DNA of 64,000 bases from a bacterium (lineage in GTDB: Bacteria; Zhuqueibacterota; Zhuqueibacteria; Residuimicrobiales; Krinioviventaceae). The translations under genes were made by a program, and so were the position numbers. The DNA lies in NCBI GenBank assembly GCA_963693055.1, contig OY843751.1, positions 288,001 to 352,000 of the forward strand, in the 5' to 3' direction. Shown here in pieces: positions 24,151 to 39,870 of the stretch. Numbering within the stretch: the first letter of the stretch is position 1; every line of letters begins with the position of its first letter. Under the pieces are notes generated by a model that saw only the letters and a list, made by a program, of their open reading frames with translations, searched no databases and had not been told where the DNA came from.

Positions 24151-24969
24151 ATGAAAAAAGTACTTGCACTGTCAGGAAGCCCAAGAAAAGGGGATAGCTA
24201 TAAAATTGTAAAACTGTTAATTGAACGCATGCAGGAACTGGGTGAAGTAGAGTTGGAGTTTATAACCCTTCGCAAGTTGAATATAGAATACTGTCGTGGA
24301 TGCCTGGCGTGTATGCGCAAAGGAGAAGACCATTGTCCTTTAAAAGATGATGTGCCAATGGTCAGGGAAAAGATGTGCAGTGCAGATGCGGTTTTGTTTG
24401 TATCTCCGGTGTACGTGCATTCAGTTACGGCGCCAATCAAAAATTTGTTCGACCGCATGGCCTATTATCTTCATCGCCCATGTTTTCATAATAAACAAGC
24501 TTTGTTGATCAGCACTACCGAGTTGAGTGGGTTAAAGGAAGCTCTGCGCCATCTCAAATTTCCAGTAAAGACGATGGGTTTTAATCTGGTTGATGAAATT
24601 GGTGTAATTGCACCAGCTTTTCATGAGCCCGGACCGTATCGAGAAAAGATAATGGCCAAGATCCATAACGCTGCTGAAAAATTATTTCGTCAGATGTCTG
24701 TAAAACAAACGGTTAAACCTTCTTTGGCAGATGTTGTCTTTTTTAATAAAATCCGTACAAAGATACAAATGCATAAAGATAGGTTCCCGGCAGACTATCA
24801 ATACTGGCATAAAAAGGGCTGGTTTGGAACGGATTATTTTGTGCCCGTAAAAATTAATTTGATTTACAAGGCGATTGGAAAGCTGCCGGTCAGGATGATC
24901 AAGATAGTATTGCGACGTAAACTTGGTCCGCAAGTGTATTCAAAATTTGTAGGTATGGAACAAGGCTAG
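24151..24969 (+). CDS. Flavodoxin-fold NADPH-dependent FMN reductase / iron-sulfur flavoprotein
   Basis: GSPRKG; CRGCLAC-x7-CPLKDD; SPVY; KNLFDR. Confidence 0.88.
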   Translation: MKKVLALSGSPRKGDSYKIVKLLIERMQELGEVELEFITLRKLNIEYCRGCLACMRKGEDHCPLKDDVPMVREKMCSADAVLFVSPVYVHSVTAPIKNLFDRMAYYLHRPCFHNKQALLISTTELSGLKEALRHLKFPVKTMGFNLVDEIGVIAPAFHEPGPYREKIMAKIHNAAEKLFRQMSVKQTVKPSLADVVFFNKIRTKIQMHKDRFPADYQYWHKKGWFGTDYFVPVKINLIYKAIGKLPVRMIKIVLRRKLGPQVYSKFVGMEQG

Positions 24970-25200: not shown

Positions 25201-26760
25201 ATGCTAGTGGAACTCTTGAATGCGCATCTGATCAGGCATGAAAAAGAACTCGATGCACTGTATGCGGTTGCCAATATTCTTGCAACCGAGACATCGCAGC
25301 GCAAGATTTTTAGGAATATTTTACAAACGCTTGAAGCAGACTTGTATATGATACGCGGAACAATTATGCTGTTAACCATTGATGGTAAAGAGCTGATTGT
25401 TGAAGCAACAGGTGGGGACCTGGATGTTGAGCAGCCCAGAATTATCTATAAAAAGGGGGAAGGTATTACCGGCAAGGTTGTAGAAGCTGGTAAATCTGCT
25501 ATAGTACCCAATATTGCTGAAGAACCGGATTTTAAGGACCGTATTCACAGGCGGTTTGACGGACAGGTGAGAAATGTTAGCTTTGTTTGTGTGCCTATCA
25601 TGCTGGTAAATAAAGTTGTAGGAACACTGTCAGTCGATCTGGAAAGTACAGACGATGAAATACTGCGTGACGGTGAGCGGGTATTGCGGATTGTTGCAGG
25701 CATGATAGCAAACGATGTAAAATCGCGGCGTATTATGCGACAGGAAAAAGAAGCCCTGGAGGCCGAAAATATCCGGTTACGGCACGAGCTTGAGCAGCGC
25801 TACCGTCCTGAAAATATAATAGGCAATTCACACGCCATGAAGGGTGTGTATACCCGCATCTACCAGGTGTCGGGCAGTGAAACCACCACAGTATTGATTC
25901 GTGGCGAATCGGGTACAGGTAAAGAGCTGGTTGCATCTGCTATTCACTATGCCGGATCGCGGTTTAACCGGCCGTTTGTCAAAGTGAATTGTGCCGCGTT
26001 AAATGAAAATGTGCTGGAAAGTGAATTGTTTGGTCATGAAAAAGGTGCATTTACCGGGGCCTTGTATTCAAGAAAGGGGCGGATTGAAGAAGCCGAGGGT
26101 GGAACGCTGTTTTTAGATGAAATAGGCGACTTTCCTCCATCTATTCAGACAAAGCTGCTGCGGGTTTTGCAAGAGCGAGAATTTGAGCGTGTGGGTAGTA
26201 ATAAAACCATAAAAGCAAATGTTCGAATTATTGCTGCAACCAACAGAGATCTTGAAAAGGCCCTCAAAGAAGCCACATTTCGTGAAGATCTCTATTATCG
26301 CATCAATGTTTTTCCTATTTTTCTGCCGCCATTGCGGGAGAGACGGTCCGATATTCTGCTACTTGCGGACTATTTTGTGGAAAAATACGCAAAAAAATTA
26401 AGCAAAAAAGTACATCGAATTAGCACACCTGCGATAAATATGCTGTTGGCTTATCATTGGCCGGGGAACGTGCGTGAACTTGAGAACTGTATTGAACATG
26501 CGGTGTTGTTGAGTAGTGACAGCGCCATACATGGATATAACCTGCCGCCTACATTGCAGGTGCCTGAAGAGCTGGATGTTGTTAATGGCAGTAATGACAA
26601 GGGGACTTTGAAGGCACGCATCCAATTGATTGAAAAAGACATTATTGTAGATGCTTTAAAACGATCCCACGGAAATGTAGCTTCTGCGGCACGTGAATTG
26701 GGTTATACTCCCCGAATGGTAAGATATAAAATAAAAAATTTGGGAATTTTAATAGATTAA
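25201..26760 (+). CDS. nifA: NifA-type sigma54-dependent activator (GAF-AAA+-Fis HTH)
   Basis: GAF domain (GEGITGKV...FVCVPI), GESGTGKE, GAFTGA, LFLDEIG, WPGNVREL, C-terminal HTH; directly upstream of nifH. Confidence 0.85.
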   Translation: MLVELLNAHLIRHEKELDALYAVANILATETSQRKIFRNILQTLEADLYMIRGTIMLLTIDGKELIVEATGGDLDVEQPRIIYKKGEGITGKVVEAGKSAIVPNIAEEPDFKDRIHRRFDGQVRNVSFVCVPIMLVNKVVGTLSVDLESTDDEILRDGERVLRIVAGMIANDVKSRRIMRQEKEALEAENIRLRHELEQRYRPENIIGNSHAMKGVYTRIYQVSGSETTTVLIRGESGTGKELVASAIHYAGSRFNRPFVKVNCAALNENVLESELFGHEKGAFTGALYSRKGRIEEAEGGTLFLDEIGDFPPSIQTKLLRVLQEREFERVGSNKTIKANVRIIAATNRDLEKALKEATFREDLYYRINVFPIFLPPLRERRSDILLLADYFVEKYAKKLSKKVHRISTPAINMLLAYHWPGNVRELENCIEHAVLLSSDSAIHGYNLPPTLQVPEELDVVNGSNDKGTLKARIQLIEKDIIVDALKRSHGNVASAARELGYTPRMVRYKIKNLGILID

Positions 26761-26782
26761 GATACTAAGATTTTCAACAAAC

Positions 26783-26917
26783 TGACAATTATTTCCGTTT
26801 TGCTAAATAGGCGGAAATAATTGTCACATCACCTAAACCTCTGTTTTTTTGATGGCTTGATCCAAAATATCAGATTTCTCATCATAAACACCTCTGACTA
26901 ACGTTACAATTATTTCC
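26783..26917. promoter_or_regulatory. Candidate upstream activator sequences for the nifH promoter
   Basis: 15-bp perfect inverted repeat TGACAATTATTTCCG (26783-97)/CGGAAATAATTGTCA (26812-26), plus a third ACAATTATTTCC at 26906-17. Confidence 0.55.
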
Positions 26918-27014: not shown

Positions 27015-27030
27015 TGGCACAACCGTTGCC
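27015..27030 (+). promoter_or_regulatory. sigma54 (-24/-12) promoter of the nifH operon
   Basis: TGGCACAACCGTTGCC, near-consensus TGGCAC-N5-TTGC. Confidence 0.88.
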
Positions 27031-27051: not shown

Positions 27052-27918
<867 letters not shown>

Positions 27919-27942: not shown

Positions 27943-28269
27943 ATGATAATGATAAGGGCGATTGTAAGGCCTGATAAAGTAGATGCCGTTTTACAGGGTT
28001 TGACCGACGCGGGGTATCCCGCGGTTACCAAGCTGCCGGTTGCCGGACGTGGAAAGCAAAAAGGCCTAAAGGTGGGCGAAGTGATTTATGATGAACTGCC
28101 CAAAGAAATGTTGATTATGGTAATACCCGAAACAGAAAAAGATTTTTTAGTAAAGACCATCATGGACCATGCAAAAACCGGAAAATCGGGTGCTTATGGA
28201 GACGGTAAAATCTTTATTTCACCGGTTGATGAAGTGTACACGATCAGTTCAGGATTTAAAGAAGCGTGA
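27943..28269 (+). CDS. nifI1: PII-family nitrogenase regulator NifI1
   Basis: AIVRP, GRGKQKG, YDELPK, GDGKIF; located between nifH and nifD. Confidence 0.92.
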   Translation: MIMIRAIVRPDKVDAVLQGLTDAGYPAVTKLPVAGRGKQKGLKVGEVIYDELPKEMLIMVIPETEKDFLVKTIMDHAKTGKSGAYGDGKIFISPVDEVYTISSGFKEA

Positions 28270-28279
28270 GGGATAACAA

Positions 28280-28657
28280 ATGAAAGAAGTGATGGCAATT
28301 ATACGAATTAATAAAATCAACCAGACCAAACGCGCACTGGCTGACGCCGGAGTGCCTTCCTTTACGGCAACCGGCAAAGTATTGGGACGTGGTAAAGGTT
28401 TGGTAGATTACCGCATTCTTCATGCAGTTGAAGAAGGCCGAGATGAAGCAATCTCTTTATTAGGACAGGGACCCCTTTTGGTCTCCAAGCGGTTGTTGTC
28501 GATTGTGGTGCCCGATGATAAAGTTAAAGTGACAGTGGATACGATTATTAAAGCCAACCAGACAGGTAATGCCGGAGATGGAAAAATATTTGTGCTGCCG
28601 GTTATGGATTCTGTTCGGGTCCGTACCGGTCAGTCCGGCGATGCAGTGTTGGATTAA
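28280..28657 (+). CDS. nifI2: PII-family nitrogenase regulator NifI2
   Basis: MKEVMAIIR, GRGKG, long T-loop, NQTGNAGDGKIF, VRVRTG. Confidence 0.92.
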   Translation: MKEVMAIIRINKINQTKRALADAGVPSFTATGKVLGRGKGLVDYRILHAVEEGRDEAISLLGQGPLLVSKRLLSIVVPDDKVKVTVDTIIKANQTGNAGDGKIFVLPVMDSVRVRTGQSGDAVLD

Positions 28658-28670
28658 TATAAAGGAGTTC

Positions 28671-30302
28671 ATGATGAAAAAGACATTACCTGCGCCGGAA
28701 GCGTTTAAGGAAAAAGTCCTTAAAAAATATCCAACCAAAGTTGCAAAAAAACGAAGCAAGGCCATGGTGGTCAACGAGCAGGAGCCCGGTCAGGAAATAC
28801 AGGCCAATGTGCGGACCATTCCCGGAATTATTACCCAGCGCGGATGTACCTATGCGGGTTGTAAGGGCGTGGTACTGGGGCCCACACGTGATATTGTAAA
28901 TATAACCCATGGCCCCATTGGTTGTGGATTTTACAGTTGGTTGACCCGACGCAACCAGACCAAACCAGATGGTCCGGAAGATGAAAATTATATGACCTAT
29001 TGTTTTTCAACAGACATGCAGGATGAAAATATTGTATTTGGTGGTGAGAATAAATTAAAGCAAGCAATTCAGGAAGCTTATGACCTGTTTCATCCCAAAG
29101 CCATTGGTATTTTCGCAACTTGTCCTGTGGGTTTGATAGGTGATGATATACACGCAGTTGCCAAAGAGATGAAAGAAAAATTTGGAGATTGTAATGTTTT
29201 TGGTTTTAGCTGTGAAGGATACAAGGGTGTTTCGCAAAGTGCGGGTCACCATATTGCCAATAACCAATTGTTCAAGCATCTGGTAGGCCTGGATGATGAG
29301 ATTAAAGGCGAAAAAAAGTTCAGAGTCAATTTACTGGGTGAATACAATATTGGCGGTGATGCCTTTGTAATTGAACGTTTATTTGAAGAATGTGGAATTG
29401 AACTGGTTGCAACCCTGAGTGGAAACTCTACAGTGAACCAGTTTGAAAACGCGCATACGGTAGATCTGAACATGATCATGTGTCACCGCTCTATCAATTA
29501 TGTAGCTGAAATGATGGAAAAAAAATACGGAATTCCCTGGATCAAGATCAATTTCATTGGTGCCGAGGAAACGGCAAAATCGCTTAGAAAAATTGCAGAT
29601 TTCTTTGAAGATGAAGAATTAAAAGCACGTGTTGAAACTATCATTGAACGGGAAATGGCAGCAGTTAAAAAAGCGCAGGAAGAGATAACACCCAAAACCG
29701 AAGGCAAGCTGGCCATGTTGTTTGTGGGTGGTTCACGCGCGCATCATTATCAGCATCTGTTCAGTGAAATAGGTATGAGAACCATAGCCGCGGGATACGA
29801 ATTTGCACACCGAGATGATTATGAAGGCCGCAGGGTTTTACCCAATATAAAAGTAGATGCCGACAGTCGTAATATTGAAGAATTGACGGTTTCAGCGGAC
29901 CCGGAAAAATTCAATCCGCGTGTGAATGAAACCAAAAAAGACCGTCTGGAGAAGAAGGGACTCGTCTTTGCGGATTATGAAGGCATGATGTTCGAAATGG
30001 ACAAGCAATCTTTGGTTATTGACGATATCAGCCATTATGAGATGGAGAAACTCATTGAATATTATAATCCTGCTGTTTTTTGTGCGGGTATTAAAGAAAA
30101 ATATGCAGTGCAAAAGATGGGTGTGCCACTGAAACAGTTGCACAGTTATGATTACGGCGGTCCTTATGCTGCATTTAGCGGTGCTATCAACTTTTATCAT
30201 GAAATTGACCGGATGGTGAATTCACGTATCTGGAGTTTGATTACACCACCCTGGCAAAAAGGCCCGAAAATAAACGCGCAATTTGCCAGAGCCGCAAGCT
30301 GA
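28671..30302 (+). CDS. nifD: Nitrogenase MoFe protein alpha chain (group II)
   Basis: P-cluster Cys in RGCTYAG, HGPIGC and TCPVGLIGDD; QSAGHH; FeMo-co ligands in MCHRS and QLHSYDY; GGSR; group II insertion RRVLPNIKVDADSRNIEEL...; AAGGAG RBS at 28662. Confidence 0.98.
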   Translation: MMKKTLPAPEAFKEKVLKKYPTKVAKKRSKAMVVNEQEPGQEIQANVRTIPGIITQRGCTYAGCKGVVLGPTRDIVNITHGPIGCGFYSWLTRRNQTKPDGPEDENYMTYCFSTDMQDENIVFGGENKLKQAIQEAYDLFHPKAIGIFATCPVGLIGDDIHAVAKEMKEKFGDCNVFGFSCEGYKGVSQSAGHHIANNQLFKHLVGLDDEIKGEKKFRVNLLGEYNIGGDAFVIERLFEECGIELVATLSGNSTVNQFENAHTVDLNMIMCHRSINYVAEMMEKKYGIPWIKINFIGAEETAKSLRKIADFFEDEELKARVETIIEREMAAVKKAQEEITPKTEGKLAMLFVGGSRAHHYQHLFSEIGMRTIAAGYEFAHRDDYEGRRVLPNIKVDADSRNIEELTVSADPEKFNPRVNETKKDRLEKKGLVFADYEGMMFEMDKQSLVIDDISHYEMEKLIEYYNPAVFCAGIKEKYAVQKMGVPLKQLHSYDYGGPYAAFSGAINFYHEIDRMVNSRIWSLITPPWQKGPKINAQFARAAS

Positions 30303-30344
30303 TAGAGAATATAGAGTGATAAATATAGATTGACGAGGATAACC

Positions 30345-31724
30345 ATGTTGTTACGACATACACCAAAGGAAATTACAGAGCGTAAAGCTTTGACAATAAA
30401 TCCGGCAAAAACCTGTCAGCCGGTCGGCGCCATGTATGCTGCGCTGGGCATTCACAAGTGTATGCCCCATAGTCATGGATCTCAGGGATGCTGCGCGTAT
30501 CATCGCAGTGCGTTGACCCGGCATTACAAGGAACCGGTTATGGCCGCTACCAGCTCCTTTACGGAAGGCTCTTCCGTTTTTGGCGGACAAGCGAACCTGG
30601 TACAAGCCATTGATAATATATTTACAATTTATGAACCTGACATTATCGCTGTTCATACCACCTGTTTATCAGAAACCATTGGTGATGATGTACAGCAGAT
30701 ATCGAAAAAAGCCATGGATGATGGCAAAGTACCGGAAGGAAAATTTGTAATCCATGCCAGTACACCGAGTTATGTGGGCTCGCATGTAACCGGTTATGCC
30801 AACATGACCAAAAGCATGGTAGATTATTTTTCTGAAAACGGCCAGCATTTTGACCAGATCAATATTGTGGCCGGTTGGATGGAGCCCAGTGATATGCGCG
30901 AGATCAAAAGGATTGCCAAAGACATGGGAGTGAAAATTGTCATGTTTCCGGATACATCGAACGTGATGGATGCCCCCATGACCGGTAAGCACGAGTTTTA
31001 TCCGCGCGGCGGGGTTACCATCCCCGAATTGAAAAGCACGGGCTGCAGCAAGCATACGCTGGCTTTGGGTTATTTTTCATCCGAGTCTGCTGCAAGATCA
31101 TTACGTAACAAATGCTCGGTACCCTTTGACGTGCTTGATCTGCCAATTGGTATTTCCGCAACAGACCGTTTTGTTGAAGCCATGAGCCTGACTGCCGAAG
31201 TTGACGTTCCTGAAGAAATGGCTGACGAGCGCGGTCGGCTGGTAGATATAATCTCGGATATGCACCAATACCTGTATGGCAAAAAGGTGGCGCTGTTTGG
31301 TGATCCTGATCATCTGATACCCTTGACCGAGTTTCTGCTCGATCTGGATATGCAGCCGGTCCACATTGTCAGTGGTACTCCCGGCAAGTATTTCGCCAAC
31401 CGTATGAACGAGTTGCTGGAAGACCGGGTAGATCATTATAATCTGTTGAATGGTAAAGGTGCCGATATGTTTTTGCTGCACCAGTGGATCAAGAACGAAC
31501 CGGTTGATCTGTTGATTGGCAATACCTATGGCAAGTACATCGCACACGATGAAGATATCCCCTTTATGCGGTATGGGTTCCCTATTCTTGATCGGGTTGG
31601 GCACAGTTATTTACCGAATGTAGGTTATGCCGGTGCTACCCAGTTTTTAATCAAGATGTTGGGTGTGCTAATGGACCGTCAGGACCGTGAGGCTACCGAA
31701 GTTGACATTGAACTGGTAATGTAG
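30345..31724 (+). CDS. nifK: Nitrogenase MoFe protein beta chain
   Basis: INPAKTCQP, HGSQGC, TTCLSETIGDD, TPSYVGSH, GFPILDR; short group II-type N-terminus. Confidence 0.97.
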   Translation: MLLRHTPKEITERKALTINPAKTCQPVGAMYAALGIHKCMPHSHGSQGCCAYHRSALTRHYKEPVMAATSSFTEGSSVFGGQANLVQAIDNIFTIYEPDIIAVHTTCLSETIGDDVQQISKKAMDDGKVPEGKFVIHASTPSYVGSHVTGYANMTKSMVDYFSENGQHFDQINIVAGWMEPSDMREIKRIAKDMGVKIVMFPDTSNVMDAPMTGKHEFYPRGGVTIPELKSTGCSKHTLALGYFSSESAARSLRNKCSVPFDVLDLPIGISATDRFVEAMSLTAEVDVPEEMADERGRLVDIISDMHQYLYGKKVALFGDPDHLIPLTEFLLDLDMQPVHIVSGTPGKYFANRMNELLEDRVDHYNLLNGKGADMFLLHQWIKNEPVDLLIGNTYGKYIAHDEDIPFMRYGFPILDRVGHSYLPNVGYAGATQFLIKMLGVLMDRQDREATEVDIELVM

Positions 31725-31749
31725 GTGATTCTAAAACGCTGGAGAGAAA

Positions 31750-32052
31750 ATGCAAAAACCTGAATATCATATATTTGTTTGTAACAGCTTTCGTATCAGC
31801 GGTGAACCGCAGGGTATTTGTAATAAAAAAGACGCGGCAAGTCTGCTGCAATTTATAGAGAATGAAATCCTGGATAGAGGTCTTGATGCCATGGTATCGA
31901 GCACGGGCTGTTTAAAAGTCTGTGAAAAAGGCCCAATCATGATTGTGTATCCTCAGGGCTGGTGGTATGGCGGCATAGATGAGGATAAAGTAGATGAAAT
32001 ACTAGATTCACTGGAAGAGGGTAAAGCGTGCAGTGAATATTTATTGGATTGA
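31750..32052 (+). CDS. Thioredoxin-like [2Fe-2S] ferredoxin (nif-associated)
   Basis: HIFVC-x12-C...TGCLKVCEKGP...VYP-x-GWWY, the Clostridium/Aquifex-type 2Fe-2S pattern. Confidence 0.9.
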   Translation: MQKPEYHIFVCNSFRISGEPQGICNKKDAASLLQFIENEILDRGLDAMVSSTGCLKVCEKGPIMIVYPQGWWYGGIDEDKVDEILDSLEEGKACSEYLLD

Positions 32053-32083: not shown

Positions 32084-32770
32084 ATGAGAACGCGACTGTA
32101 TATTATATTGATTTTTATTTTAATGCTGGCATTTTCATGCTCAAAAGATGACTCTGTTACTGAACCGGATATTCAAGGAGATTTTTCCTTAAAAACCTAT
32201 GCCTTGGAACGCAGTCCTAAAATCAACCGTACAGGTGCGGGATTGGATTTTGTCCATGATGGCGAATATGCAGATACTACCTATTTTGGAGACAGCACAC
32301 CGGAAGCGTTTGTTGCTGATGCTGTCTTTTATAATCTTATGGTCTATTTTGAGGATGAAAAAGGTGATACCCAGAGTGAAGGATCGCCCGCTATTCTACT
32401 TGCAGAAGAAGCACGGGCAATGCTGGCTGGAACAGGAATTGATTATTTCAATTCTTTTACCGAGATCACGTCTGCAATGCTTGACAGCCTGGCTTTTGAT
32501 ATTACTATTGATTTTAATTCATGCATCAATGACAGCGGATTTTATGACAAATCTCTGATCCTGGCGGCGTATGATGGATGTGTGATAGGCAACAAATTCC
32601 GCACACGTTTGCTAACCATTCCCACAGATCAGAGTGAAGAGGATTTACAACCTGTGTTTCTGGTACAAACCGTAGAGGGAAGCCTCGTCAAGTTTATGGT
32701 AAAACAATTCAAAGGTTCCGGAGAAAATAAGCAGAAAACCACGGTAATGTGGCAGTTGCTGGAATTATAA
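32084..32770 (+). CDS. Lipoprotein, probable HmuY-like ligand-capture protein
   Basis: LAFSC lipobox; C-terminal PVFLVQTVEGSLVKFMV...TTVMW resembles the HmuY-family terminal beta-strands; directly precedes a TonB receptor. Confidence 0.55.
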   Translation: MRTRLYIILIFILMLAFSCSKDDSVTEPDIQGDFSLKTYALERSPKINRTGAGLDFVHDGEYADTTYFGDSTPEAFVADAVFYNLMVYFEDEKGDTQSEGSPAILLAEEARAMLAGTGIDYFNSFTEITSAMLDSLAFDITIDFNSCINDSGFYDKSLILAAYDGCVIGNKFRTRLLTIPTDQSEEDLQPVFLVQTVEGSLVKFMVKQFKGSGENKQKTTVMWQLLEL

Positions 32771-32800: not shown

Positions 32801-35068
32801 GTGTTGAAAATGATACGCAAATGTTTAATGTGGATATGGATTTTAGCATGGATTCCGGGCAGTTTGTTTGCCCGGTATATCCTGACCGGTAGGGTGTGCA
32901 AGAGCAGTACCGGTAAGGGTATTGAAAATGTACAGGTACTTTTTGACAGCACAGGTGTTGTTACCGATTCGTCCGGATATTTTAATCTGGATTGTAAAAC
33001 AGCCCTGTATCCTGTGGAATTGTGGATAAGGCATATTCAGTACAAACCTACTACGGTTATGGTGAATGGTCCGGATGCAGAGACATACATTGAACTGGAG
33101 CCTGCGGTATTACAGACGGATGATATAACTGTAATCGCCGAACAACCCATCCGTTTCAGCAGTACGGTTTCCGCAAGATCCATCAGCAAAAAAGAAATTG
33201 AGGCTATTGTGCCTTCCACCACATCAGAGGTGCTGATTCGGACGCCGGGGATTGTGGTAAAAGATCCGTACCAGTCTCCCATTGTGCTGCGAGGATTAAG
33301 CGGACAACGATTGTTGATTCTGCGCAACGGCAACCGTCGCTTTAGCAGCTATCCCGCCGGATTTATGTCTCATGTTGTCAATATATATGATCTTGAAAAA
33401 GTAGATGTGGAAAAAGGTCCCGCTTCGGTGACTTTGGGCGCCGGGGCCATTGCCGGTGTGATAAATTTGATTGATAAATCTCCGTTCAAACAAAAGGGTT
33501 TGAACGCGCGCGTAACCACTGGTTATGCATCGAACAATAATGAAAAAAATACACTGTATTGCGGGGGATGGAGTAACGGAACCTTTGCGCTAAAAGGCGC
33601 GTACCGGGACCGGAATGCCGGCGTGTATCACGATGCTGACGGCAGCAGGGCCGTGAACAGTTTTTACGGCGATAAAGACGTGTTCACGGCCGCGGGTCTG
33701 CATACAAACAGACAAGAGTTGCGTCTGTATGTCGAACTGCATCGTGGCGGCCCATGGGGAAAACCGGTGGGTTTCAGCGGTACCCGCTACCTGCATGTCA
33801 AAACCCTGGCGGAAAACAGTGATAATTATAGCATGCATTACGATTATTCTCCAGGTGGCGTATTGGAAAAACTCGCTTTTTCAGCGTATTACGCCAGAGA
33901 GAACAGAGACCAGCAAAAACTATATCTGAATGCCGGTACCAAAGCTCCCTCGTATCAGGAACTGACCCTATATTCTGATTCCTGGTATGGTGCCAAGGTT
34001 GCTCCCTTGTTCAGGCTGAATAAAGATATGACCCTGCAATATGGCGCCGAGTTTTACCGGTTCAGTATTTCATCTCCTGTGAATATAACGGATTATTATA
34101 ACGGATATTATTTTGAAAACCAGGTGAGCCGTAACGCACGTTCTTTAACATCAGGCAGTTTTGCGGAATTGAAATACAGGGCAGGAAGCCATTTGTCTTT
34201 GCAGGGAGGTGTTCGTTATGATCATACGGCTGTTTATGAAGGTGATGTATTCAGCTTGGAACAGGAGCTGGAACGCCGCACACAAACCGGCGCATTGAGT
34301 GGAGCTTTTGCAGCGCAATACTTACTGGGCACTTTTAGCCGAATAAAGATCAATTTGGCAAAAGCGTTTCGTATGCCTACACCGCAGGAAATGTTTAGCG
34401 ATACCTATACCGCAAACGGCATTCTTTATGGCAATCCCGAATTGATGCCGGAATACAGCCGTAATATTGATCTGGTTTATCTGTTCAGCCACCCTGCGTT
34501 TCGGTTCGAGGTCAGTCCGTTTTACTGGCTGCTGGACGATATGATAAGCAAGGAAATCGTGTACGATATGCCCGGTCTCAATTATGAATATGTCAACATT
34601 GGCAGGGCCGAGATCTATGGCGGCGAGGTTGAAATCAGAATCCAACTTGATGATGCCTTTTGGAACACAGACGATCTGCACTTTTCACTTGGAGCTGCTT
34701 ACACACACGGAACGGAAATTACAGAATATGACTCGGGCACACTGTATGAACCACTGGATTATATTCCGCCGTTTCATGTCAAGGCTGAACTGGGATATGG
34801 ATTTTCAATCTCGAAACGACTCACTGTGAACTCTATGCTGTCTGTGCAGCAGTACAGCCGGCAGGCCCGTTTACCGGATGATGCTTATGTAACACCCGAG
34901 TATGCATTGTTTTCGCTCATGCTTGGAGTGAAATATCGTCATCGTTATGGCAATTCGGTTGTGCGGCTGGTAGTGAATAATTTTATGAACACCCAATATT
35001 ACGCGTTTCAGTCTTTTGTGCCCGGTAAAGGCCGGGATGTGAGACTGTATTGCTCGCTGGCTATTTAA
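32801..35068 (+). CDS. TonB-dependent receptor (heme/cobalamin/metal-chelate type)
   Basis: N domain; plug TPGI...LRGLSG; VEKGPASVTLGAGAIAGVINLI; FRMP and NPEL (FRAP/NPNL-like); PGKGR terminal strand. Confidence 0.92.
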   Translation: MLKMIRKCLMWIWILAWIPGSLFARYILTGRVCKSSTGKGIENVQVLFDSTGVVTDSSGYFNLDCKTALYPVELWIRHIQYKPTTVMVNGPDAETYIELEPAVLQTDDITVIAEQPIRFSSTVSARSISKKEIEAIVPSTTSEVLIRTPGIVVKDPYQSPIVLRGLSGQRLLILRNGNRRFSSYPAGFMSHVVNIYDLEKVDVEKGPASVTLGAGAIAGVINLIDKSPFKQKGLNARVTTGYASNNNEKNTLYCGGWSNGTFALKGAYRDRNAGVYHDADGSRAVNSFYGDKDVFTAAGLHTNRQELRLYVELHRGGPWGKPVGFSGTRYLHVKTLAENSDNYSMHYDYSPGGVLEKLAFSAYYARENRDQQKLYLNAGTKAPSYQELTLYSDSWYGAKVAPLFRLNKDMTLQYGAEFYRFSISSPVNITDYYNGYYFENQVSRNARSLTSGSFAELKYRAGSHLSLQGGVRYDHTAVYEGDVFSLEQELERRTQTGALSGAFAAQYLLGTFSRIKINLAKAFRMPTPQEMFSDTYTANGILYGNPELMPEYSRNIDLVYLFSHPAFRFEVSPFYWLLDDMISKEIVYDMPGLNYEYVNIGRAEIYGGEVEIRIQLDDAFWNTDDLHFSLGAAYTHGTEITEYDSGTLYEPLDYIPPFHVKAELGYGFSISKRLTVNSMLSVQQYSRQARLPDDAYVTPEYALFSLMLGVKYRHRYGNSVVRLVVNNFMNTQYYAFQSFVPGKGRDVRLYCSLAI

Positions 35069-35069
35069 T

Positions 35070-36125
35070 ATGGAAACGAATATGAAAGATACGGCATTAC
35101 AATATACGGAAATGGTGCGGCGTCAGTACCGGATTGCTTGGGTCATGGCCTTGCTGCTTGCGGCAGGTATCTTGCTTGCCCTGCATGTGGGACCGGTAAA
35201 ATTATCGATTTTGTCTTTATTTATAAACTCTGATACGAGCGCCTGGCGGGTGCTCGTGTCAATCAGAATGCCGCGTATTATGGCAGCGGTTTTGGCCGGC
35301 GCCGGATTATCCATAAGCGGTCTGTCAATGCAGAACGTGCTTCGAAATCCGCTGGCTTCTCCCTTTACGTTGGGTATATCCGGCGCGGCTGCTTTTGGTG
35401 CGGCCTTTTCGGTTATGACTTCCGGGATGCTGGGCAGTCTTGTTGCCTGGGACCCGGGTTCTTATAAATTTATTACGCCTCTGCTTTCAGGCTTTTCAGC
35501 ATTTGTGTGCAGCATGATTTCCGTATTGATCATTATCACGGTGATGAAGCATCGCGGCAGTCGTCCTTCTATTATTGTATTGGCGGGTATTATGACCAGC
35601 AGCCTGTTCAGTGCATTGACCTCGGCTTTGCAGTATTTTGCAAATGACCGTCAACTGGCTGAAATCATATTCTGGACATTTGGCGATCCGGGGCGGGCCA
35701 CGTATCCCATGCTGGTGGTACAGGCATTGATCATTCTGCCGATTCTGATCTGGATGGTGCGGCACACCTGGGATTTTACCCTGCTGCAATCCGGTGATGA
35801 TTCCGCCAAAGCTGGTGGATTGGAGCCTGCACGGTTTCGTCTGCGTGTTTTGCTGTTAGCGTCGCTTATGACGTCCATGATCGTTTCCGGATATGGCATT
35901 ATCAGTTTTGTTGGGCTTTTGGCCCCTCACTTTTGCCGTTACTTTTTTAAAAGCCAGACCATGCTGGTTACGGCATGTGCGGTGTTTGGCGGATTGTTTC
36001 TGTTATTGTCCGATACCTTGGCGCGTTTTGTTTTACAGCCGGTAATATTGCCAGTCGGCATTGTGACCGCGTTTTTTGGCGCTCCGTTTTTTATCATTAT
36101 GCTCATCAGGAACAAAGGACTATAG
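35070..36125 (+). CDS. FecCD/BtuC-family ABC permease
   Basis: IRMPRI, MQNVLRNPLASPFTLGIS, GIISFVGLLAPH, LPVGIVTAFFGAPFF. Confidence 0.95.
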   Translation: METNMKDTALQYTEMVRRQYRIAWVMALLLAAGILLALHVGPVKLSILSLFINSDTSAWRVLVSIRMPRIMAAVLAGAGLSISGLSMQNVLRNPLASPFTLGISGAAAFGAAFSVMTSGMLGSLVAWDPGSYKFITPLLSGFSAFVCSMISVLIIITVMKHRGSRPSIIVLAGIMTSSLFSALTSALQYFANDRQLAEIIFWTFGDPGRATYPMLVVQALIILPILIWMVRHTWDFTLLQSGDDSAKAGGLEPARFRLRVLLLASLMTSMIVSGYGIISFVGLLAPHFCRYFFKSQTMLVTACAVFGGLFLLLSDTLARFVLQPVILPVGIVTAFFGAPFFIIMLIRNKGL

Positions 36126-36127
36126 AT

Positions 36128-36901
36128 ATGATACACGTGAGCAAACTCGATTTTGGATATACCGAAAATCCGGTATTGCAGGATATTTCGTTTAGAGTAG
36201 CTGCCGGAAATCTGTGTGGTATTTTGGGCGCAAACGGATCTGGCAAGACCACGCTGTTAAAGTGTATGCACGGTATTTTGCCGGTAATATCCGGTAATGT
36301 TCAGATCTGCGGCAAGACAATGCATAAAATGGGTGCGCGGAAACGGGCTGCCATTGCCGCCTATGTTCCGCAGGACACCAAACAGTTTGGCACCGGCACC
36401 GTGTTTGAGACCGTATTGCTGGGCCGTAAACCCCATTTTGGATCGAATCCTTCTTGTAAGGATATCGACATAGTTTCTCAGGTACTTGCTGAACTGGAAC
36501 TTGAAGATATGGCCATGCGTCCGGTACAGACGCTGAGCGGCGGACAACGGCAGCGTGTCTGTATTGCCAAAGCGCTGAGTCAGCAAACCCCGGTGATTAT
36601 TATGGACGAACCCACTGCCAATCTGGATTTGAAATACAAGATAGAGGTAATGAATATTCTCAGCCGCCTTGCTGAAAAAGGAAAAACCATTGTCATCAGT
36701 GTGCACGACATTTCCATCGCCTATGCCTATTGTACCGAGCTGGTACTGTTGAAATCGGGTAAAATGATAGACAAGGGCGGCAAAGAGGTACTGAGTATTT
36801 CCAATATTGAAAAGCTCTATGATGTAGACTATAACGACGTTTTACCGCTGGTAGAGACCATGCCCGGTGTTGCAAATTTTTCAGAAATTGTGTGTAATTG
36901 A
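36128..36901 (+). CDS. FecE/BtuD-family ABC ATPase
   Basis: GANGSGKT, YVPQ, LSGGQRQ, IMDEPT, SVHD; the ATG at 36128 directly follows the permease stop. Confidence 0.95.
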   Translation: MIHVSKLDFGYTENPVLQDISFRVAAGNLCGILGANGSGKTTLLKCMHGILPVISGNVQICGKTMHKMGARKRAAIAAYVPQDTKQFGTGTVFETVLLGRKPHFGSNPSCKDIDIVSQVLAELELEDMAMRPVQTLSGGQRQRVCIAKALSQQTPVIIMDEPTANLDLKYKIEVMNILSRLAEKGKTIVISVHDISIAYAYCTELVLLKSGKMIDKGGKEVLSISNIEKLYDVDYNDVLPLVETMPGVANFSEIVCN

Positions 36902-36903
36902 GT

Positions 36904-37956
36904 ATGAATCGATTAATAAAATATACTGCTTTTAAAATGCTTGCTGTTCTCCTGCTATTGGGGAGCAGTGCATACTCTGCGGAATCTGTCATAACAGATA
37001 TGCGTGGTCGTACAGTTACTGTCCCGGAGAAGGTGGACCGTATTGCCTGTATTGGCAGAGGGGCGTTACGCATGGTTTGTTATATGCATGTAGCGGAAAA
37101 GGTAGTGGGTGTGGAATTCCCGGAGCGTAAAAAGACCGAGCATGCGCGTCCCTATTTGCTGGCGTATCCGTATTTGAAACAACTGCCATCCATTGGTATG
37201 GGCGCCAAGGGGGATCCCGAGTTATTGCTACAGGCCGCGCCACAGGTTATTTTTTTCGCGGATGGGAGTCCCCAGGCTGTTAACACCTTGCAGGACAAGA
37301 CCGGTATTCCGGTCATCAATATTACTTGCGGGGATCTGTATGATCGTCGTCAGGATTTTGACGATTGTTTGCGTCTGATAGCAGATATCCTCGACCGGCA
37401 GGACCGGTGCGACAGCCTCATTCAATTTGTAGATGATCAGATTGCCGAATTGGCTGCAATTGCGGAGCAAAATCAGTTAAAGGATGTATCCGCTTACATT
37501 GGCGGATTGATATTCAAGGGCCGGCAGGGCATTACCTCCACACAAGCCGCTTTTACGCCGTTTCAATTGCTGGGCATTGAAAATGTTGCGAGCGGCTTGC
37601 AGGCAAAATCCACCAATCCCGTCAACATCAATATCGAACAGTTGGCATTATGGTCCCCGGATGTGATATGTATTGACAAGGCCTGCAAAGCTCAGGTGCA
37701 AAAGGACTTGAAAGTCTATAGTTTTTTGGGTGGATTTGAAAATATGTATGAACTGTATCCCACACGGCTGTATGGAGAAAATTACGAGACGGTTCTGGTG
37801 AACGCGTTTTATCTTGCTTATGCTTTTACTGACCGGTCTATTGTCGAGTTTGAGGCCAAAACGGAAATCCTTTATGAGCGATTTTTGACACCCGGTGTAA
37901 TGGATAAAGTACGGTCAGTCTATGGCCTGCCGGGACCCTTCAGCGCGGGGGAGTAG
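36904..37956 (+). CDS. Class III (helical-backbone) periplasmic metal-chelate binding protein
   Basis: ITDMRGRTVTVPEKVDRI, VVGVE, RPY...LPSIG, PELLL...PQVI, NIEQLALWSPDVI. Confidence 0.9.
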   Translation: MNRLIKYTAFKMLAVLLLLGSSAYSAESVITDMRGRTVTVPEKVDRIACIGRGALRMVCYMHVAEKVVGVEFPERKKTEHARPYLLAYPYLKQLPSIGMGAKGDPELLLQAAPQVIFFADGSPQAVNTLQDKTGIPVINITCGDLYDRRQDFDDCLRLIADILDRQDRCDSLIQFVDDQIAELAAIAEQNQLKDVSAYIGGLIFKGRQGITSTQAAFTPFQLLGIENVASGLQAKSTNPVNINIEQLALWSPDVICIDKACKAQVQKDLKVYSFLGGFENMYELYPTRLYGENYETVLVNAFYLAYAFTDRSIVEFEAKTEILYERFLTPGVMDKVRSVYGLPGPFSAGE

Positions 37957-39175: not shown

Positions 39176-39195
39176 ATTATGAAAAGGCATTATGT

Positions 39196-39870
39196 TTAAT
39201 CCTTGTTCCAAGGCTCCGGCCCTGTAGTAAAAGAATTTATTTTTTACTCGAGGTCAAAAATCTAAAATCTTGTTCATAATCCCAGATTGCGTCCCTATGG
39301 GACGCGAAAGGTTTGGAGACCGGATGCTACAAATATTTGGCCCCTGACGGGGCCTATAAATGCTAAATCGGCACTCACAAATTCGTAAATAGGTCGTATT
39401 GCAATTATCCCGTTAGGGATAAAATATTTGTAGAAAATTAAAAAAAAATGTATTCGCATGCCGTCAGGTATGCAATATTTTTATCATGAAAGAGATGCTC
39501 ACCGTCACAATCCGTAAAGTGGTTTAATCTGCGTTCATCTGTGGTTCATTTTATTATTACGATATTTAAATCTTGTTCCATATTTGTACTTTTTACACTG
39601 CGTCGGCCCTTCGATACATCCCGATCCGCTAACTGGCGGACGGGACACTCAGGGACCGACTTTACGCTTGGCGGTTTGAACCCTCGTTCCAGGGCTCCGG
39701 CCTTGGAACGATAATATGTATAAAATTGAACCACGAAGAAAAGAAGGACACGAAGGGATAAAAATTCGTCTGCGACGGACAAACGAAATAAATTTCGTTC
39801 TACTGGCTCGCTAAAACTCGGGGACTGATCCGATAAATGGTTATATTTGCGTTCATCTGTGGTTCATTTC
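39196..39870. repeat. Mosaic of REP-like short palindromic elements
   Basis: GCGTCCCtatGGGACGC, GGCCCCtgacGGGGCC, TTATCCCgttaGGGATAA and GCATGCCgtcaGGTATGC with CTACAAATATTT flanks; direct repeat TGCGTTCATCTGTGGTTCATTT near 39530 and 39848; further palindromes. Confidence 0.75.

Follow-up and report, generated by a model that had tools for sequence, protein, structure and literature searches.

A group II nifHDK cluster joined directly to a ferredoxin and an importer on a chromosome in which nifE, nifN and nifB were not found

Of what use is a molybdenum nitrogenase to a bacterium on whose chromosome the genes for assembling its cofactor were not found? The question is raised by a 64,000-nt stretch of a bacterial contig (hereafter the window), where nifK is followed directly by a ferredoxin gene. 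Beyond what a first-pass annotation of the sequence had recorded, an importer operon was found behind the ferredoxin gene, and nifV and modABC were found to be absent in parallel. G000 denotes the genome studied, G001 its sister species and G140 a relative of the same class with a complete nif cluster. The features of the locus, in window coordinates, are as follows.

25201..26760, + strand: nifA-type sigma-54 activator with GAF, AAA+ and HTH domains (Pfam; TIGR01817 527 bits, cut-off 529)
26782..26917, no strand assigned: 12-14 nt motif in three copies, two as an inverted repeat (kept in G001, surrounding spacer diverged)
27015..27029, + strand: sigma-54 (-24/-12) promoter consensus 5' of nifH (identical in G001)
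27094..27918, + strand: nifH, nitrogenase iron protein (TIGR01287 over cut-off)
27943..28657, + strand: nifI1 and nifI2, PII-type regulators (72% and 79% identity to G140)
28674..30302, + strand: nifD, group II MoFe alpha chain (TIGR01282 over cut-off; P-cluster and FeMo-co pocket residues intact)
30345..31724, + strand: nifK, MoFe beta chain (TIGR01286 426.8 bits, 0.5 bit under the cut-off of 427.3)
31725..31749, + strand: 25-nt spacer in place of the nifE-nifN-nifB of relatives (2 of 25 positions differ in G001)
31750..32052, + strand: thioredoxin-like 2Fe-2S ferredoxin (fdx), nif-associated (NF041612, clostridial type, below cut-off)
32084..32770, + strand: lipoprotein, predicted HmuY fold (no Pfam or NCBIfam match)
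32801..35068, + strand: TonB-dependent outer-membrane receptor (PF00593, PF07715)
35070..37956, + strand: FecCD/BtuC-type permease, ABC ATPase and periplasmic binding protein (PF01032, PF00005, PF01497)

The activator is 72% identical to the one near the complete G140 cluster, and an RpoN motif is present in the G000 genome. The promoter at 27015..27029 was named by what we take to be the sigma-54 -24/-12 consensus, and the motif copies at 26782..26917 are candidate activator sites or a putative terminator. Intergenic gaps from nifH through the periplasmic binding protein gene measure -4 to 42 nt, and the five genes 3' of fdx share its strand and are spaced by -4 to 31 nt; judged by gene spacing only, nifH through the binding protein gene would form one NifA/sigma-54 transcript. 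A scan for promoters and terminators revealed sites no more numerous than in shuffled sequence (30 vs 29.8; 15 vs 13.0), and defining a regulon by the upstream 12-nt motif was abandoned because the genome-wide scan yielded too many chance matches. Elsewhere in G000 (C1:5427947-5439263), a second NifA-like activator (49% identical) lies beside glnK-amtB, with a sigma-54 consensus 5' of a porin-like gene and a glutamine-synthetase-like gene (names by inspection); a second glnK-amtB pair, also named by sequence inspection, is located near 5756000. In the window, a stretch of about 360 nt (39195-39553) is present as a tandem duplicate in G001.

The nifK stop codon TAG ends at 31724 and the fdx ATG is at 31750; the spacer in between contains a purine run resembling a ribosome-binding site and leaves no space for a gene remnant. 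The remnant-free join of nifK to the ferredoxin gene, which had been read from this one sequence, was borne out by G001, where the same gene order and the same junction were found. A collapsed assembly, which the first-pass annotation had raised against its own reading, was excluded: beside the G001 junction, independently assembled contigs cross the junction in runs X1 and X3 with 0 differences and in run X4, from a second study, with as much divergence as a sister-species sequence should show. An assembly artefact at this point is thereby ruled out by the sister species and by independent contigs from two studies.

In complete clusters the arrangement is different. Among the best 80 NifK loci from species genomes, nifE is the next recognised gene in 79, the exception being G001, and in the 71 of those 79 loci that show a ferredoxin the distance from nifK to fdx is 3.1-4.9 kb versus 25 nt here. 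The comparison with close relatives that had been proposed at the outset gave the same picture: the nearest complete cluster, that of G140 (its NifK labelled 'candidate division KSB1' by its source), has the order nifA ... H-I1-I2-D-K-E-N-B-fdx-modABC, with E-N-B between nifK and fdx, while G001 is without them. The window ferredoxin is 75% identical to the G140 ferredoxin located after nifB. The same placement of the ferredoxin after nifB is given for Bacteroidales, along with one split cluster, in an excerpt of PMC4356463.

The junction by itself is not unique. NifK was found in 44 of 291 Fibrobacterota genomes, and the DNA 3' of nifK was examined in 40; nifK is followed by the ferredoxin in 10 of these 40 clusters and by unrelated genes in another 4. 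All 14 do carry nifE, either farther along the same DNA or at another place in the genome. For nifB this holds in 13; the stretch of the 14th ended at a contig edge, its genome lying outside the search. Since the join recurs in Fibrobacterota with nifE elsewhere, it can arise by relocation; what sets the present locus apart is that nifE, nifN and nifB are found nowhere else in the genome. In the Fibrobacterota loci L228, L229 and L231 an extra nifH follows the ferredoxin, and in L228 and L229 it stands between ferredoxin and nifE.

The absence of nifE-nifN-nifB that had been noted in the window extends to the whole chromosome and to G001. G000 is a single contig of 6,535,007 bases (100% complete, 1.26% contamination) with two approximately equal arms by GC skew; its ends do not overlap. 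G001 consists of 3 contigs and is 98% complete. Searching both genomes entirely for the nitrogenase fold (PF00148) revealed nifD and nifK only. Across G000, the NifE model TIGR01283 matched only nifD and nifK and the NifB model had no match; nifB was not found in G001 either. With NifE, NifN and NifB queries from two Chlorobiaceae loci, tblastn on G000 gave only cross-matches to nifD and nifK, and NifB queries including the short NifB of a genome of the same order (G034) gave a best E of 0.2. None of the 28 radical SAM proteins of G000 matches NifB or MoaA at E <= 1e-25. Applied to G140 and to 12 fragmented control bins, the same search recovers nifB in the former and in 10 of the latter.

In the same way, nifV and modABC (ModA, ModB, ModE) were not found in genome-wide searches of G000. 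Three NifV-like proteins were assigned as LeuA, as citramalate synthase and, in one case, to no family, this last homocitrate-synthase-like protein scoring 139 bits against a cut-off of 463. A weak ModA-family match proved to be a PstS-family protein, and two NifX-like PF02579 matches belong to an unrelated Mrp/ATPase cluster and were dismissed as pieces of NifB.

The first-pass annotation had left relocation, precise deletion or another cofactor route as explanations. Relocation on the chromosome is excluded by the genome-wide profile and tblastn searches, and another route fits the purifying selection described below; a precise deletion cannot be demonstrated from the present comparison of sequences. 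Could nifENB, perhaps with nifV and modABC, then reside on an unbinned plasmid or second replicon of an ordinary split-cluster diazotroph? Split clusters are common, as the 14 of 40 Fibrobacterota without nifE behind nifK illustrate; the three contigs of G001 all map onto the G000 chromosome, so neither bin includes an extra replicon; and small nifE-matching contigs in X4 and X5 have depths of 7.7-7.8 versus 7.3 and 8.2 for the sister-like contig. However, two assemblies made independently, in two studies, would both have to show the same omission, and where split clusters were observed, the same tools found nifE or nifB inside the bin. As a weak further point, the X1/X3 host contig was recovered on G140 nifK (a 489-nt piece), and none of similar depth was recovered on nifE, nifN or nifB among the longest pieces listed. 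We consider a missing replicon unlikely.

The locus shares gene order, regulators, ferredoxin and catalytic residues with the group II cluster nifA-H-I1-I2-D-K-E-N-B-fdx-(nifV)-modABC of Chlorobiaceae, Bacteroidales and Clostridium pasteurianum, but nifE, nifN, nifB, nifV and modABC are absent from the chromosome, and an HmuY-fold/TonB/ABC importer follows fdx. By the six-gene rule nifHDKENB (PMC3464626), nifE, nifN and nifB are lacking in G000 and G001. The exceptions without NifN or NifEN that are described in an excerpt of that paper keep nifB and nifV; the NifHDK system described here thus falls outside the rule at nifB as well. Structural genes without NifEN are also known from Roseiflexus sp. 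RS-1 (nifHBDK), group C thermophiles and Endomicrobium proavitum, but these systems keep nifB and belong to other NifD lineages, whereas the present cluster is of group II and nifB was lost or never received. The Roseiflexus type has nifB present for NifB-co; in G000 and G001 nifB was not found.

The available portions of further papers agree on this point. All 8 partial nif sets in Table 1 of PMC11773926 have NifB, and Table 1 of PMC9447857 has rows for HDKB, HDKEB and HDKENB and none for HDK alone. NifB synthesis is called essential in passages of PMC13474568, and no nifB-less case appears in the excerpts of PMC8399215, PMC12903952 and PMC8597730. Within these portions, the published NifEN-less exceptions compared all keep nifB, and a group II NifHDK without nifB is a new variant. 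No report of FeMo-co uptake or of a nifB-less group II nitrogenase was found in the literature searched, mostly open-access journals; genomes with nifHDK only may well sit unremarked in the supplements of papers.

The carbide cluster could also be made in house by an unrecognised, non-homologous enzyme, with maturation taking place on NifDK. Such NifEN-independent maturation on NifDK has been shown for Roseiflexus in vitro (PMC11573651, in part), 8 of the 28 radical SAM proteins of G000 are without any family at E <= 1e-25, and the homocitrate-synthase-like protein has no assignment. According to the same passages, however, the Roseiflexus route still requires NifB; no radical SAM gene was found near the cluster, none in G000 is NifB-like by tblastn, and a molybdate transporter was not found in the genome. 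This route is judged rather improbable.

That the first-pass annotation had rightly called HDK and the regulators intact was evident from the proteins themselves. NifD aligns over its full length, including the long group II insertion, to 4WES/1MIO (E 1e-191), presumably C. pasteurianum-type MoFe alpha chains. In an alignment of 7 NifD sequences, of which 5 come from clusters that include nifENB, C59, V67, C85, C151, Q189, H193/H194, C271, R356, E377, F378, Q489 and H491 are invariant in all 7. This set covers the P-cluster cysteines, the FeMo-co ligands and the pocket for FeMo-co and homocitrate; for the numbering, the residues were mapped to what we take to be their A. vinelandii counterparts by motif. 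NifH, NifD and NifK are 91, 81 and 78% identical to those of G140. By these sequence features the proteins qualify as a group II Mo-nitrogenase, under control of NifA, sigma-54 and NifI1/NifI2.

The dN/dS analysis of nifHDK that had been suggested as a check revealed strong constraint. Between G000 and G001, NifH is 100% identical (24 synonymous, 0 non-synonymous changes), and dN/dS is 0 for nifH, 0.032 for nifD, 0.025 for nifK, 0.021 for fdx and 0.031 for nifA versus a genomic median of 0.056. The nif genes thus range from the 1st to the 25th percentile of 241 orthologue pairs, which were drawn from 285 frames in 23 stretches with the nif region included. The last 300 nt of nifK show 18 synonymous versus 3 non-synonymous codon differences, and fdx shows 10 versus 1. 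Because the spacer and the codons on both sides of it have diverged, mostly silently, the shared join predates this sequence divergence and the proteins were constrained afterwards. nifH, nifK and fdx have a low dS (2nd-5th percentile), and window 30310-30900 shows 0-2 differences per 100 nt between the species versus 6-8 nearby. The latter suggests recombination in the 5' half of nifK; together, low dS and this tract point to some gene flow between the species.

These data bear on whether the cluster might be a dead relic in which decay has not yet begun and similarity is kept by recent gene flow. The low dS, the nearly identical tract and the unremarkable codon adaptation of nifK and fdx would be consistent with this, but the spacer and the codons on both sides of it have diverged, almost all silently, 12 genes are free of frameshifts and stops in either species, and dN is only 0-0.013 at a dS of 0.15-0.40. 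A decaying relic is unlikely on this evidence, and one frozen before decay by gene flow is held to be highly improbable. Since the full FeMo-co pocket and the nitrogen regulation appear to be under selection, an active enzyme is implied.

NifDK might also stay without FeMo-co. It might have another nitrogen-regulated task, as a P-cluster or simple Fe-S reductase or an electron sink, or NifH alone might be of use, with the importer serving iron or heme. For group VI NFL systems, whose genomes likewise have no NifB, the use of simpler clusters is assumed (PMC13474568, in part); no labile cofactor would have to cross two membranes, and NifH, with 0 non-synonymous changes, is the most conserved part. 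Yet according to the same passages, group VI lacks the FeMo-co ligands Cys275 and His442 and is only about 22% identical to NifDK, whereas the present proteins have the ligands and an entirely invariant pocket and are 70-81% identical to complete nitrogenases. The cluster has also kept its nitrogen-fixation regulators and nif ferredoxin, and NifD and NifK are constrained as NifH is. A function without the cofactor therefore seems unlikely to us.

Regarding origin, the GC content of the nif block is 0.448 versus 0.394 for the host genome, and 3 of the 167 phylum genomes searched have NifK, with none of the 17 other family members among them. Because it is GC-richer than the genome, the block was probably acquired laterally; the Fibrobacterota joins, the GC-richer block and the rarity of nif in the phylum taken together indicate that a donor with a split cluster may have passed on nifK and fdx already joined. 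A NifK tree of 33 rows places G000 and G001 with P0077-P0079, apart from G140, at a support of 87/96, which is below the starred level; P0077-P0079 lie outside the 167 phylum genomes and the 291 Fibrobacterota genomes that were searched. Contigs of 11,926 and 206,863 bp appear to carry the P0078 and P0079 NifK together with lipoprotein and receptor homologues, so that the linkage of nifK and importer may extend to a wider clade. Upstream of nifA, an FMN-reductase/flavodoxin-fold gene (24151-24969) has a dS of 1.06, far above its neighbours, and could lie at the border of the acquired DNA.

Several other loci were observed on the way. G034 carries an unrelated, divergent nitrogenase-like D/K pair with a short nifB upstream (L018:684-4498). 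In the Bacteroidota bin G167 (L100), nifK and nifN are broken by stops or frameshifts, by decay or assembly error. The Bacteroidales bin G231 (L161, C26) has nifHDK only, with no nifB match; its nifK runs into short tandem repeats and the contig edge, and with nifK near that edge the bin was left out of the nifB-less count.

The importer behind the ferredoxin was examined gene by gene. The best NCBIfam match of the TonB receptor is a heme/hemoglobin receptor family, sub-threshold. For the lipoprotein at 32084-32770 no Pfam family was found at E <= 0.05 and hence no PF14064 (HmuY) match; its language-model (atlas) features score 0.96 to HmuY clusters. A structure was predicted with a modest pLDDT of 63, and the six best structural matches of the model are HmuY-type lipoproteins (Z 7.8-9.3; rank 8, Z 4.3), including 8B61 (Z 9.3, rmsd 3.4, 123 aligned) and 3H8T (Z 8.7, rmsd 4.2, 124 aligned), whereas Foldseek with the same model gave no match at E <= 0.001. 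The lipoprotein is thus predicted to have the HmuY fold, and the fold says nothing on function. The set of surface lipoprotein, TonB receptor and FecCD-type ABC importer is like that of HmuY/HmuR hemophore uptake and Btu-type salvage, but here the HmuY Pfam match is missing and the linkage is to nif and mod genes, not to heme use. At G000:C1:1477273-1481032 (L186), a second lipoprotein and TonB receptor pair is paralogous to the nif-linked pair (lipoprotein hhalign probability 97%, receptor 30% identical).

Within the phylum, G000 and G001 are the 2 of 167 genomes in which the close family of the lipoprotein was found. Of 401 Bacteroidales genomes, 2 have the receptor, and both belong to the 41 that carry nitrogenase-family genes. 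In one of these, G421, the importer module directly follows modE-modABC, and a complete nifHDKENB-fdx-nifV is located elsewhere; on the metagenome contig L108 a ModE-like gene (family assigned by sequence inspection) lies just upstream of the module, and on another metagenome contig with the module no nif gene was found on the sequenced part examined. From these gene neighbourhoods, the module would be a molybdenum-linked uptake system of diazotrophs which is not exclusive to strains without nifENB. The family-level searches around G421 and G181 covered 4 and 1 genomes, respectively. In the Bacteroidales loci L150-L151 (G421), L152 (G181) and L106, the importer is followed by an unassigned protein of 400 aa, a HypB-like GTPase and an ABC ATPase; neither the 400-aa protein nor the GTPase was matched in G000. 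Between G000 and G001 the importer genes have a dN/dS of 0.03-0.14 and so evolve faster than the nif genes.

With these data at hand, the reading we prefer, with a probability of about 0.4, is that NifHDK is completed with FeMo-co or its carbide core from other diazotrophs, likely via the HmuY-fold/TonB/ABC importer. That NifB, NifEN, NifV and ModABC are all missing would be expected if the cofactor came in ready-made, and import is favoured by the only nif-linked transporter being of a type built for bulky metal cofactors. In such a scheme, the HmuY-fold lipoprotein would capture a protein-shielded cluster at the cell surface, and the TonB receptor and the FecCD-type ABC importer would bring the cofactor across both membranes. 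The P-cluster would be assembled by the housekeeping Fe-S machinery and NifH, and the imported cofactor would be inserted into apo-NifDK. The importer could have originated in complete diazotrophs for salvage under molybdenum limitation, after which own synthesis became dispensable. An analogy would be the salvage of B12 by auxotrophs. The further-reaching view that the organism is an N2 fixer auxotrophic for its cofactor, combining a canonical MoFe protein with scavenged FeMo-co or NifB-co, is put forward tentatively, as somewhat doubtful.

Single steps of this scheme have precedents: preformed FeMo-co can activate apo-NifDK (PMC11573651, in part), and protein-bound Moco is taken up by C. elegans (excerpt of PMC7849362). 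Donors would be at hand, as the source samples contain many contigs with nifE, nifN or nifB from other organisms. A possible parallel exists in the same genome, where G000:C1:69356-76962 (L163 in G001; families scanned on the G001 copies) carries a molybdoenzyme of the xanthine/aldehyde-oxidoreductase type together with MoeA, MocA and XdhC. The set is conserved in both species and under selection, and MoaA, MoaC and MoaE were not found in G000. Molybdopterin salvage is therefore possible and, judged from gene content, would be a parallel sign of cofactor salvage.

Import is opposed by the instability of extracted FeMo-co in water (excerpt of PMC11928389). The module in G421, where nifENB, nifV and modABC are complete, counts against a dedicated substitute role and weakens the claim that the importer replaces nifENB. 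The link of importer and nitrogenase in Bacteroidales rests on 2 genomes, and the faster evolution of the importer also counts against import; the importer may be an ordinary metal uptake system for heme, iron or a molybdenum chelate.

That a canonical enzyme is strongly selected while nifB is missing implies cell-to-cell exchange of the cofactor, an unknown route of synthesis or a function free of the cofactor, and each of these three options would alter the calling of diazotrophs from genomes. A FeMo-co carrier or importer, if such it is, would be a useful part for nitrogenase engineering. If import is true, the six-gene rule, nifB included, misses real diazotrophs, and the nitrogenase cofactor would be a traded public good in anoxic communities.
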